This document shows, piece after piece, positions 58,264 through 62,978 of a DNA stretch of 64,000 bases (position 1 is the first letter of the stretch; each line of letters opens with the position of its first letter). This DNA comes from an uncultured Chlamydiae bacterium. GTDB lineage: Bacteria; Chlamydiota; Chlamydiia; Chlamydiales; JAJFMA01. The notes beneath the pieces are model-generated. The model had not been told where the DNA came from. It was given only the letters and a program-made list of their open reading frames with translations, and ran no database searches. The translations under genes were made by a program, and so were the position numbers. The stretch spans positions 2,912,001 through 2,976,000 of the forward strand of contig CAVQMM010000001.1 in NCBI GenBank assembly GCA_963713615.1, given 5' to 3'.

Positions 58264-59787
58264 TTAGGCGGCTAGGCAATCGAGCTCACAGACTACCTCA
58301 TCTTGCCAAAGCCTTTCCCATTCATCGTTAGCTCGAAGAGTTCTAAGGTTTGCCATTTGATCCGCATGATCCCGTCTCCACCATGCTCCGGGCTTTTTCA
58401 ACCGCTTCTGAATCACATGGCGATGCGTGCTTTCTATTTTCCCCGAACCTATTGGCAAACCTTTTCTAATCGCTTCATCATACTTAAACTGCCCAGGTCT
58501 ATTAGTTATGTATTGTATACACTTTTGCAGGCCCTCATGCTCAGGGTGAATTTTGGAGTACTTTCGAAGCTTTCGCTTCACATTCACTATCTGTCCTTTT
58601 TTTAAGCGGGTCTTTAGCGCTCGAGTCTCCTTTTTAATATCCTCAGTCCAGGCCGTTGCTGCTCCCGCTAGATACTCACTTAAATGGGCCTTGTTCACCT
58701 TTGCGGTCAGTTTTCGGTCGACTGCAAAAGGATCGTCTGTCGCGTTTTGCTCCTCGGACATAGCTGGCGCTATGCCCTCGTCACAAACCACGACATCCGA
58801 CCTTTTTCGTCCGACCGAAATTCTGACCGTAAAGGTGAACAAGGCCCTTAAATGATACAGATCAATTAGGTAGTTCCCTCGGCTTCCTGCTACCTTTCCA
58901 TCTGTTCAGTTATCCATTTTGCTCCATCCCCTATACCATGTAATTGGCTCTGTCCTTCCCACCCAAATTGCCGTTCTAATAATGTTAGCATTCTATTTCC
59001 CAAATCATCAGGGCTATTAAAGGAACACGTGTATTTCCAGTCTGCTTCCCCTAAGCGCTGAATAACCCCCACTCTAAGCTCTGCCCAGGATACTCTTCTG
59101 TTTTTCCGTCTATCTCCAGAACCAGCTGTTTCAACTAGGGGCACCATTCCACCATCCATTTCAACCACAAGTGGGGTTGTTGGATTGTCTGCCTTTTTCC
59201 CGATAGGAGGCTTTTTCATCATCAGCTGCGCCCTCTTGGCATGTTTAAGCGTGATATTTGATATCGTAGTGGGACCGATTTCCAATCCATGGTGCTCCTT
59301 CATCTGTTTCGCGGCCCTCGAAAAAGAGTCCTCGGATCCTAGATCAGTTATCAAGCGTTGACACCGCTTTGACCAATCTCGGTGTTTTATCCCTGAAAAG
59401 TCCTCAAAAGGCCTTAAACGATGTGAAGGTCGACCACGATGCTTCTTTGCAGAAAACACCTTTGAACAACAGTGATGCGTCCTAGTGTTGTCTGCCATTC
59501 GACTTTTTTTTTCCGTGGGGACGGATGCCCTTCTCAGGCTCGTATTGAGATTCTACCTGCTTAACACGATGATCCGCCCAATTTTGAAGAATGGCCTGCC
59601 CAGACTTACGAATAGCAGCTATGGTAGCTTCTTCTGCTTCATCGCCCGTCTTAAGCTCTTCAAAATTCTTACCAACGACATCAACCATCTCCAGGAGCGG
59701 CTGTAACAGACTTGGATTTTCTCTAAGCACATGTAAAATATAACGTTCATCCTCAGAAAGGTCGTGTGATGGTGGAATAGTCTTCAT
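58264..59787 (-). pseudogene. ISKra4-like transposase with frameshifts and an in-frame MITE
   Basis: EMDGGMV, IGDGAKWI, IDLYH and GLPIGSGKIESTHRHVIQKRLK; A-run at HGKKK (possible programmed -1 shift); extra shifts near 59460 and 58893. Confidence 0.8.
58687..58846. mobile_element. 160-bp MITE, copy 2
   Basis: TSD CTTAAATG (58679-58686 and 58847-58854); one base differs from copies 1 and 3. Confidence 0.93.
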
Positions 59788-60077
59788 CTAAATTCGCATA
59801 TTATTGATTTGGATAGGGTTTCATGCTGGGTCAGCCGCAACATTGTGTAAACGATCTTACACAAGAATTGCTCTGCGTACAAGTTTGGATTGCACCCCCA
59901 ATCCAATATTTGATTGACCTCTAAGATGAGAATTTTATAACCTGCAACTTGACATTGATCGGAATTTCGGTCAGACCTATCCCTCTAGAGCGTCGGTAGG
60001 CTTAATTCGGCCACTGCAATGACTGAATTTGGACGAACAGTTTATAAATCACTTATTTATCCATCAGGAGAACATTC

Positions 60078-60446
60078 ATGAAAAGGTATCGCAATATAGC
60101 AATCGTATTCAAACTTTTTCTTCTTTCCCTCTGTTGTAACGCATATGCAGATCCCTGTTCTAATTCCGAACAATATCAGGTTAATTTTTTAGAGATGATG
60201 GATAACAAATTCTATATAGAACCCGAGACAATATACGTTTCTCCTAAAGAAATCTTACTAAATATTTCTGGAGAGCTTTTACCTATCAAACATTTATTTT
60301 CCGATGACGGAGGTGTTTTTGTACTTGCAGAAGAGATATTAATGGCTAAAGCAAAGGATGGCCCTTGGACTTGTGCTTGGTGTGGAGAGCCTAATGATGG
60401 AGGCAATTATTGCACCACATGCTTCAAACTACGAAGGGAAAAATAA
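60078..60446 (+). CDS. Secreted hypothetical protein with C-terminal zinc ribbon
   Basis: AGGAG RBS, signal peptide, WTCAWC...YCTTC. Confidence 0.75.
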   Translation: MKRYRNIAIVFKLFLLSLCCNAYADPCSNSEQYQVNFLEMMDNKFYIEPETIYVSPKEILLNISGELLPIKHLFSDDGGVFVLAEEILMAKAKDGPWTCAWCGEPNDGGNYCTTCFKLRREK

Positions 60447-60455
60447 TGGTAAATA

Positions 60456-61334
60456 ATGTTTAAATTCATTTTTATTTTAGTTTTATTGCTACCGAATGTC
60501 GTGCGTGCTCAGGATATAAAAAATATTCTGAGCCAGTTATCTGAGTGTGATAAACAAGACTTGAATGACCTTTTCCATGTATTGATGGATGATGATCAAT
60601 TTAGTTATACATTATTTGGAGACAAACCTGTATCATTATCTGGAGATTATATTATTACTCCTGATGAAGATAAATTATCCGGTATATCATCGGGTGAAAT
60701 TTTTTGGCAAAAGTGGGCCGTCTGGAAACGAAATCAAGAAAGATTTTCTATTTCTCATTATTTATTTATTGAAGAGCCGGCCTATAATCGCCGTGATAGT
60801 ACAATGGTTTTTATTTTCTTTATCAACAAAAAAGCCTTTATGGAGACAGTGAACAAAAATATTCAGGCTTTCAGAGATGTTTTAGGGTACAATGTAGCAG
60901 CATCCGAATTGTTAGAGAAGATGAAAAAAGAGAATGCGTTTATGAGTCTGCTAAAAGATAATGAAATGTTATTGGGTATATTGCTAGGGTATGGTGAAAA
61001 TAATGCCAAACTATACGCTCGAAGAATGAGTTTAAGGAAATTTATTACTGGAAAAACTTTGTCTATTTTACCAGAAGAAAAACCTTTACCATCTAAGGAC
61101 TTTTCGTCTATTGAAGAGGAGGAAGACTTTTTAAATCACCAGTTACGACCTTTCGCTTCTTACAATTGCGAACCGTCGATTATTTCGCCAGTACAATTTG
61201 CTGCTGATTTAAATCATAAAGAAACGCAATTGCTTCAGAAAAAGTATTCTACCTTGAGAAATAAAATTTCTCTTCTCTATGCTGAAAACAATAATTTTCT
61301 AGAAGTTACTTTATCACAATTAACACTCGATTAA
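60456..61334 (+). CDS. Secreted hypothetical protein (AT-rich)
   Basis: Signal peptide; YTLFGDKP and LGILLGYG motifs; 9 nt after the previous gene. Confidence 0.75.
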   Translation: MFKFIFILVLLLPNVVRAQDIKNILSQLSECDKQDLNDLFHVLMDDDQFSYTLFGDKPVSLSGDYIITPDEDKLSGISSGEIFWQKWAVWKRNQERFSISHYLFIEEPAYNRRDSTMVFIFFINKKAFMETVNKNIQAFRDVLGYNVAASELLEKMKKENAFMSLLKDNEMLLGILLGYGENNAKLYARRMSLRKFITGKTLSILPEEKPLPSKDFSSIEEEEDFLNHQLRPFASYNCEPSIISPVQFAADLNHKETQLLQKKYSTLRNKISLLYAENNNFLEVTLSQLTLD

Positions 61335-61739
61335 TAAGAGGACTCTGGTTACCACACTCGGGCTCAAGCTTTGAATTTTGACCTCCGCAGAAGCCCTGCG
61401 GTTGATCGATCAAAAATGAACAACAAGGAAGGGCATATGGGGTTCCCAAATAACCTCTGAAAATATGCCTTGAAGAAGATACTGGCAGAACTTGACCGGA
61501 AGGTAGGTCTGGAGCGCTTTTCTACGTTGACTCGTTCCTTTCAGGCAAAAGGTCACGCAAAGTAGTGAAAAGTCAACAAGTTAGACTGATCCTCGCGTTT
61601 ATCGGGCGTTACGACCTCTTAAAGACTGGATTAGAGTGATGATTAAAGGGAATGTAGATGGAGTGGTTTGATCTCTAGCCCTATCCTAGTTAACATTATG
61701 GTACAGATAGGGCAGGGAAGCCACTGTTTCTATATCTAG

Positions 61740-62081
61740 CTACTCTTTGTTATCCGACTCGTCCTTTCCAAATTCAGCTTCGATTTCTTCAACCGTGGGC
61801 AAGCTCTCCTTCAATTCTTTTGTAAGGGTGTCCACAATATTCACTTGATAACCAGAAACGCTGATAGGCTTCTTAAAGTCTCTAAGAGCATATTCAACGG
61901 TAAAATTGTCTTTTGTTTTGCAGAAAATCATTCCGATGGACGGCCTATCTTCAGGTTGCTTCAGATGCTCATCCACTGCCGACAAATAAAAATTTATCTG
62001 TCCAATGTCGTTTGCTTCGAACTCACAGGCCTTCAACTCATATGTTGCGTAGTCAGTTATGTGACGTTCGTTTCCTCTCAT
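61740..62081 (-). pseudogene. C-terminal fragment of a DUF1016/YhcG protein
   Basis: ELK...GQINFYLSAVD...PSIGMIFC...VEYAL...LPTVEEIEAE. Confidence 0.8.
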
Positions 62082-62137
62082 ACAGATAAATTCTCACAAA
62101 AGTTTCGTTTCTACACAACATAATTTACCTCATTCCC

Positions 62138-62978
62138 CAGGGCGATCGCATCTTAATTTCCTTGACTAACGAGTCGAAACAGGAACTCAGCCGACATTTT
62201 CATCTTGTTCTGCATTCTTCGCACACTAAGCTTTCCTCGCGCCTGGTTGATAAGGTTTAATCCAAGTTTTCGTGCTTGTGTCATTATCTCGGGACCATTG
62301 TCCTTATATATCCTTGAAGCATCTTCATTGAACGTGAGATCAAGAACCCAATGGAGCTTATTTGCTATTTCCCAGTACGCTCGGATTGCTTGGGAGAGCT
62401 GTCCTGCATTTGCTTCGCGAGATGAAATGTAGAAGCGTTGCTCAACCGTGGTTTTGCCTTTGATGGTTCTCTCGGATTCAATCAAGATAGCAGATTTCAA
62501 GCCAGGCCATTTGCCTATGCTGCTAAGCTCATTTAGATCAGAGCTAGCCCAACATTTTCGACATTCAATTCGACCATGACCCTTGTCATATTCCTCATGC
62601 TTGGTTCCATTAAATCCATTCCAAGCAGTCTTCTTCCAACCCTCGAATAGTAGCTTGATGTCTGTGTGAAGCGTGCCTTGGTTGCCTTTCAGTCCTAAAA
62701 TATAGTCTCCTTTCTGTTCAATGATTTGGGCCGCAATCTTTCTTTGGGCCTTATTCACCTTTGCGGTCAGTTTTCGGTCGACTGCAAAAGGATCGTCTGT
62801 CGCGTTTTGCTCCTCGGACATAGCTGGCGCTATGCCCTCGTCACAAACCACGACATCCGACCTTTTTCGTCCGACCGAAATTCTGACCGTAAAGGTGAAC
62901 AAGGCCTTTCTTTGGCACCCCATTGCATCCATGGTGACTATCTGACCCTCCAAATCTAACATAGCAAGAAGCTCAGGC
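62138..62978 (-). mobile_element. ISAs1-family element (right part); transposase interrupted by a MITE and by IS21
   Basis: End CAGGGCGATCGCA at 62138; DAMGCQ, DYILGLKGNQ, GHGRIE.R and LHWVLDLTFNED; catalytic-region W-x-I-E-N reads WEIAN. Confidence 0.85.
62747..62906. mobile_element. 160-bp MITE, copy 3
   Basis: TSD TTTCTTTG (62739-62746 and 62907-62914). Confidence 0.93.

Follow-up and report, generated by a model that had tools for sequence, protein, structure and literature searches.

A 160-bp palindromic MITE of a chlamydia inserts in random reading frames and is likely mobilised by a DUF6399 transposase

The stretch of DNA analysed in this study (the window; 64,000 bp, positions 2,912,001 to 2,976,000 of contig CAVQMM010000001.1, GenBank assembly GCA_963713615.1) comes from an uncultured Chlamydiae bacterium and carries three copies of a palindromic 160-bp miniature inverted-repeat transposable element (MITE). 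In the source genome (G000; 3.97 Mb in 3 contigs, 99.1% complete) the MITE copies result from a recent burst and their insertion frames are random, while in related genomes older copies were found in frame inside conserved genes. We consider it about 75% probable that the whole of the following explanation holds: the MITE would be mobilised in trans by a transposase with the domain DUF6399, would insert blind to the reading frame, and would survive where its copies are harmless.

The three copies, the separate 8-bp target duplication of each and the footprint of 168 bp had been reported in an earlier sequence-only reading of the window, and all were exact in the sequence (Table 1). Copies 1 and 3 are identical and copy 2 deviates at base 7 only; the duplications are CAATTCTG, CTTAAATG and TTTCTTTG. 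MITE and duplication together correspond to 56 codons. Frames are named here by strand and offset, counted on the MITE. Three of the six, +0, +1 and -1, contain no stop codon, as had been claimed, and the 53-residue peptide quoted in the earlier reading is frame -1. Three or more open frames were obtained in 219 of 20,000 base shuffles of the MITE. The reported end-to-end fold was also reproduced, one strand giving z = -12.3 and the other z = -15.1, and none of 200 shuffles folded as well. No match to the MITE DNA was found in Rfam at E ≤ 1, or in a plasmid collection.

In the source genome we counted 115 near-full copies of the subfamily to which the window copies belong (subfamily A), 110 of them exactly 160 bp long. 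Among these 110, 80 are identical and 94 have an 8-bp duplication, which supported the earlier claim of recent activity. Subfamily B comprises 13 full copies, also of 160 bp but differing from A at 45 bases, so that A and B together amount to approx. 128 copies. The element is short, has terminal inverted repeats, duplicates its target, is present in many copies and encodes no transposase, as defines a MITE. Its target is a weak T-rich 8-mer. Duplications ending in TG, noted in the earlier reading, hold for the three copies in the window but for only 33 of 97 copies genome-wide. No orientation rule was detected for copies near gene starts or ends. One A copy is nested within another, shortened copy (C1:130119-130342), and several internally deleted copies of 55–67 bp retain both ends. 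The insertion point of a further copy (C1:1094365-1094524) is the stop codon of an open reading frame (ORF) with 3,555 codons, and the frame ends at the junction. At C1:3690509-3700614 (L027), MITEs read in stop frames interrupt two Rhs-repeat genes; the Rhs-repeat gene in the window (53169-58094, 1,641 aa) is whole.

A copy was counted as in-gene when it was flanked by at least 30 open codons on each side and the coding score was at least 4, and this rule was applied to the 94 exact-length A copies with a duplication. Such in-gene copies are scarce, because they number 16 of 94, whereas approx. 68% of the weighted target sites fall within called genes. The gene read the MITE in an open frame in 8 of the 16 cases, against a fraction of 0.51 calculated by means of the target-site matrix (p = 0.62); stricter score cut-offs gave 7 of 12 and 5 of 9. 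Insertion frames in the source genome are thus random. The sequence-only reading had proposed a peptide-inserting element and had itself named a lack of open-frame enrichment, with in-gene copies confined to dead genes, as the result that would refute it; within this genome no enrichment was seen. Nor were the copies in intact housekeeping genes that it had suggested looking for found here, as inspection demonstrated an intact conserved gene for none of the eight open-frame hosts. The following candidates were rejected as intact open-frame hosts: a GT92 glycosyltransferase (frameshift downstream), the ISAs1 gene at C1:384250 (5' frameshift), C1:3430503 (remnant of a deleted ISAs1), C1:3263872 (MITE upstream of the conserved start), C1:492192 (MITE on the start codon, with no more than a weak orthologue), C1:1963401 (a frame of 209 aa that corresponds to the end of an ORF of 648 aa) and C1:386723 (short fragment). 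For the B copy at C1:3671870 the host had no orthologue in five genomes.

The only long element with the ends of the MITE is an insertion sequence (IS) of 1,883 bp at C1:1035800-1037682, flanked by an 8-bp duplication and carrying a single ORF of 559 aa with DUF6399 (PF19936). Its left and right ends equal those of the A subfamily at 16 of 16 bases each, the asymmetric base 7 included, and it is the kind of autonomous element for which the earlier reading had suggested a search. Over 20 bases, the left end of subfamily B is identical to the right end found in a second IS variant with DUF6399. Judged from these sequence matches, the DUF6399 transposase likely mobilises the MITE in trans. The mobiliser had earlier been sought in the ISPna2 group of IS1595, whose GGC-type ends and 8-bp duplication do fit the MITE. 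With the IS1595 transposase model PF12762, however, no match was obtained in the source genome, while the same search was positive in one of 14 genomes, and the long element with matching ends encodes DUF6399 instead. An IS1595 transposase as the mobiliser is therefore hardly credible.

The DUF6399 protein has at least 1,563 homologues; a search of genome contigs with the single transposase returned no relative, whereas an alignment-based search did. We examined 71 of 79 related loci, the eight partial ones being omitted. GGCC-type ends with 8- or 9-bp duplications were found at 17 of the 71, in nine genomes of several phyla; 12 more duplications of 6 or 12 bp were left uncounted, as misplaced ends or chance. 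No NCBIfam IS model matched the protein (E ≤ 0.01). An AlphaFold model built on 119 sequences had a predicted local distance difference test score (pLDDT) of 86. Over the whole length its best fold matches were Hermes and ISCth4, the latter with Z 12.3 and a root-mean-square deviation of 4.0 over 260 residues, and integrase cores reached Z up to 14.3. The invariant residues are D166, D221, H243 and E473. In the model D166, D221 and E473 make up a DDE triad; the RNase H fold carries a helical insert, with approx. 250 residues between the second Asp and the Glu, and H243 ends a motif D240-x-x-H243 located 19 residues past the second Asp, in which the consensus has E in place of D240. These findings give DUF6399 a concrete candidate role: it would be the transposase of an IS family that is widespread and has defined ends.

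A DNA search of 400 genomes of the order, in each of which two candidates were scored, detected the MITE in 8; a peptide-profile search of 400 genomes of the phylum detected it in 10. The source genome is included in both counts. G002, which belongs to the same genus as the source genome, contains older copies, 89–95% identical to one of them. A chlamydial identity is suggested by its DnaB, which scores higher than the threshold of PRK06321, a chlamydial model. Twelve are whole: four are open in ORFs, two are closed or shifted at gene ends, and six lie outside likely genes. The open copies are in deoC, in tilS, in a CheR-TPR gene 13 codons before its end and in an unnamed ORF, which has MORN-like repeats by reading of the sequence and no match in Pfam. 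The closed or shifted ones are confined to the last few codons of xerD and of a UGPase-like gene, and likewise a partial copy in oppA. The deoC and tilS hosts are the sole deoC and the sole true tilS of G002. In deoC the insert corresponds to a clean gap in three of three orthologues, and in a model of the protein it forms a low-confidence loop with two helices, with the barrel intact. The gene adjoins rsmH in G001–G004 (L114–L117); in the source genome no deoC was found with the G002 protein as query. Among 24 loci examined in G405, one copy lay inside a recognisable gene, lnt, in open frame +1, and two closed-frame copies lay at most 11 codons from an ORF end. The same genome has a tandem MITE pair, 8 bases apart, that forms one 118-codon open frame (L276, C66). 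In G079 an eroded in-frame remnant of approx. 39 residues was found in a domain linker of PutA.

A hairpin so stable, closing end to end and keeping compensatory pairs, might be spliced out or skipped in the RNA, so that the host proteins are not lengthened. We regard this as very improbable, since removal from the RNA would not need the observed pattern, in which old in-gene copies are open and closed ones occur only at gene ends, and since the MITE matches nothing in Rfam. By sequence comparison, the older in-frame copies in relatives are likely survivors of selection in the manner known from Rickettsia.

In proteins we searched with a profile of frame -1 only, against 1.84 billion sequences. 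It gave 125 matches at E ≤ 0.001, most of which are short calls, probably spurious, and 33 were scanned. Internal inserts among these 33 were found in two RecD proteins, in OpcA (a 56-column gap), in an outer-membrane efflux protein and in a TPR protein; NuoJ, an ABC ATPase and others carried terminal fusions. The protein P0224 was rejected as a chance repeat match. In one RecD (P0161, residues 243-350) approx. 55 more residues, perhaps a nested second element, split the MITE peptide at the central hairpin without loss of frame, and another RecD (P0148) has two separate inserts. Taken at the level of the family, the behaviour like that of Rickettsia palindromic elements (RPE) that the sequence-only reading had proposed was thus supported, by in-frame copies in deoC, CheR-TPR and likely tilS of G002 and in lnt, putA, RecD and OpcA.

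Our conclusion is that a G+C-rich palindrome gives rise to the peptide as a by-product, which is tolerated without being a selected domain. That it could be functional, a domesticated module kept by selection on its amino acids, is suggested by the recurrence of frame -1 in many long proteins among the matches above, by the two helices predicted in the peptide and by the frequency of frame -1 in G002 (three of four open copies). Frame -1 was, however, the sole frame searched in proteins, and the opposite-strand frame is tolerated too, in Lnt of G405 and at C114 of G002. Old copies erode, as in PutA. In-gene copies show 5–7 replacement against 1–3 silent changes, a neutral ratio as in intergenic copies; no signal was found in the read frames from the ratio of replacement to silent polymorphism (pN/pS), and there was no silent excess between subfamilies or within in-gene copies. 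A domesticated peptide is for these reasons improbable.

The palindrome itself is maintained: 19 of 60 pairs have changed on both sides, more than in any of the 500 shuffles or the slid controls, in an analysis that used a hand-written structure in which seven pairs never form and in which related sequences inflate the count. Such compensatory pairs could stem from arm-to-arm copying without an RNA function. Length and open frames are kept as well: five master sequences, 24–47 bases apart, and 17 of 17 older single copies tested all have 160 bp and no stop in frames +1 and -1. One may ask whether the MITE lineage itself has been selected as harmless, a codon-multiple footprint and open frames having been kept for survival in a gene-dense genome. 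A naive neutral model gives the masters' length and open frames a chance of P = 0.034, and the footprint of another family (family D), 157 + 8 = 165 bp, is a codon multiple too. When changes are confined to the 65 variable columns, however, P becomes 0.27–0.32, and none of the six frames of family D is free of stops. In two other MITE families, whose ends are unrelated, the hairpin core likewise lies 73 bases from an end: one is of 157 bp (family D; GTA...TAC ends, 8-bp duplication), the other of approx. 159 bp (ACCCGG ends). A fixed arm of 73 bases in three families offers a geometric reason for the length. The loci of these two families are C1:191206-191362 and C1:1795357-1795514 in the source genome, L085–L102 in G002 and L103–L106 in G003. 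Selection for harmlessness is thus rather unlikely as the main cause, and geometry rather than coding may fix the length of the MITE. More doubtful still is a combined view, in which at least three families with unrelated ends share a portable hairpin core placed 73 bases (approx. seven helical turns) from an end, so that different transposases, one of them from an undescribed DUF6399 IS family, can move an element of approx. 160 bp whose codon-multiple footprint and open frames are selected. If this were true, the element would be a self-tolerating cassette of peptide sequence, by which enzymes, essential ones among them, are lengthened again and again.

The explanation that we prefer, trans-mobilisation with subsequent survival of harmless copies, can be set out as follows. 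The MITE would be non-autonomous and moved by the DUF6399 DDE transposase of the same genome, which would perform both the cutting and the joining. Insertion would take place without regard to the reading frame, and the depletion in genes would reflect host selection rather than targeting, with harmless copies remaining. Over time the survivors in genes would be 56-residue in-frame inserts, and the fusion proteins would be produced and functional. New in this account are the link to DUF6399 and the presence of young and old stages within one MITE family.

Several observations weigh against it, in addition to the P value of the naive neutral model. The source genome has only one intact DUF6399 ORF for 115 A copies, and both copies of the DUF6399 IS that matches subfamily B are internally deleted. 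DUF6399 was found in only two of six MITE-bearing relatives, and in G377 the ends of the DUF6399 IS differ from those of the local MITEs. The gene calls in the source genome were made with our own Markov model and not taken from an annotation, and the in-gene counts in relatives are small. Lastly, the tilS copy of G002 is divided between two contig ends that have an identical duplication, and one of the ends has a stop. In four runs of one study the contigs with tilS-specific letters match the stop-free end and none bridges the MITE; we consider this copy likely to be open in frame.

Within the window, the two in-frame cases from which peptide insertion had first been argued do not serve as evidence for it. 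The junction peptides in the ISAs1 and ISKra4-like transposase genes were as quoted in the earlier reading, but both hosts are broken just upstream of the MITE, so that neither can yield a fusion with a full transposase, and the frame of copy 1 is closed. The ISKra4-like gene has a frameshift approx. 12 codons upstream of the MITE and a stop at 58890. The stretch with the frameshift exists in five genomic copies; three are without it, and the fifth resembles the window copy in carrying it as well as a MITE at an identical position. The ISKra4-like copy at C1:1537107-1542282 (L014), which has the frameshift of the window copy, carries one A and one B MITE and suggests that an already dead, MITE-bearing IS was duplicated. 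The ISAs1 gene is interrupted by IS21 approx. 24 codons upstream of the MITE, its 5' half lying outside the window, and its HWxIEN motif, the Glu of which we take to be catalytic, reads YWEIAN. The two in-frame cases look like chance landings in transposase genes broken elsewhere.

Table 1. Positions in the window of the MITE copies, their target duplications and the genes around them.
Feature	Position	Strand	Remark
MITE copy 1, subfamily A, 160 bp	22556..22715	+	host gene reads stop-bearing frame +2
MITE copy 2, subfamily A, 160 bp	58687..58846	+	host gene reads frame -1
MITE copy 3, subfamily A	62747..62906	+	host gene reads frame -1
8-bp target duplication left of copy 1	22548..22555	+	repeated at 22716-22723
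8-bp target duplication left of copy 2	58679..58686	+	repeated at 58847-58854
8-bp target duplication left of copy 3	62739..62746	+	repeated at 62907-62914
Central hairpin of the element	58759..58774	.	73 bases from either end
ISKra4-like element, broken	58238..59787	-	outer limits approximate; hosts copy 2
3' half of ISAs1 transposase gene	62153..62978	-	IS21 separates the 5' half; hosts copy 3
End of IS21 element (istB), extends past the window; splits the ISAs1 gene	62979..64000	-	
Frameshifted tyrosine-integrase gene, copy 1 near its 3' end	21950..22775	+	limits approximate

The integrase gene that hosts copy 1 has a full-length paralogue at 6858-7943. The stretch from 6858 to 22775 is island-like, with an integrase, a YhcG nuclease, a split DUF3987, GNAT fusions and a second broken integrase; an ORF resembling aminoglycoside adenylyltransferase lies in it at 15754-17055. 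Upstream in the ISKra4-like element, at 59482-59787, is a short ORF with a terminal lysine run overlapping the next ORF, possibly a programmed frameshift.

A literature search, the coverage of which excluded most subscription papers and ISfinder, returned no description of this MITE or of DUF6399. The candidate transposase was compared with the Mutator-like p-MULT group, described in the available part of PMC3942029 as DDE enzymes of the RNase H fold that have C/D(2)H 11–19 residues past the second Asp (D2) and a helical insert of 99–138 residues. The modelled DUF6399 protein shares the RNase H fold DDE, the helical insert and D/E-x-x-H at 19 residues past D2, but the insert is larger, at approx. 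250 residues, and no match was found to the IS256, ISH6, ISLre2 or ISKra4 models. By the criteria given in that part of the paper, the modelled protein would be Mutator-like, save for insert size and model matches.

Among small palindromic elements, ERIC, YPAL/RU-2 and the 107-bp Correia MITEs are described, in the sections of PMC2229807 available to us, as having open frames fused to host ORFs; YPAL measures approx. 168 bp and encodes 56 residues. These have TA or other ends in that description, whereas the present MITE has GGCC ends and an 8-bp duplication. A MITE in a transposase gene is ordinary, because Correia and RUP are reported within such genes in the same sections (PMC2229807).

The closest parallel is with the RPE, palindromes of approx. 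150 bp in frame within conserved genes of an intracellular bacterium (PMC10969869, PMC2229807). They are tolerated in enzymes, Gmk being active; in the accessible text their target duplication is given as unknown and a mobiliser is not named (PMC2229807). No NCBIfam model matched the three frames of the MITE (E ≤ 0.01) and no Rfam family its DNA, a comparison made by models and not by direct alignment with RPE sequences. By analogy, the MITE family appears to work like RPE, the likeness being one of behaviour: both are palindromic MITEs in frame inside conserved genes, as far as the excerpts describe RPE. That palindromes can invade proteins has been known ever since the studies on Rickettsia; the portions of the reviews at hand name no mobiliser for them, and only old survivors had been observed. 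Compared with RPE as described there, the chlamydial MITE differs in three respects: its target duplication is 8 bp long, an intact IS matches it, and it has undergone a fresh burst in which the frames are random. Since this burst stands beside a candidate transposase, and old open-frame copies exist in relatives, both the model of insertion followed by selection and the identity of the mobiliser are directly testable.

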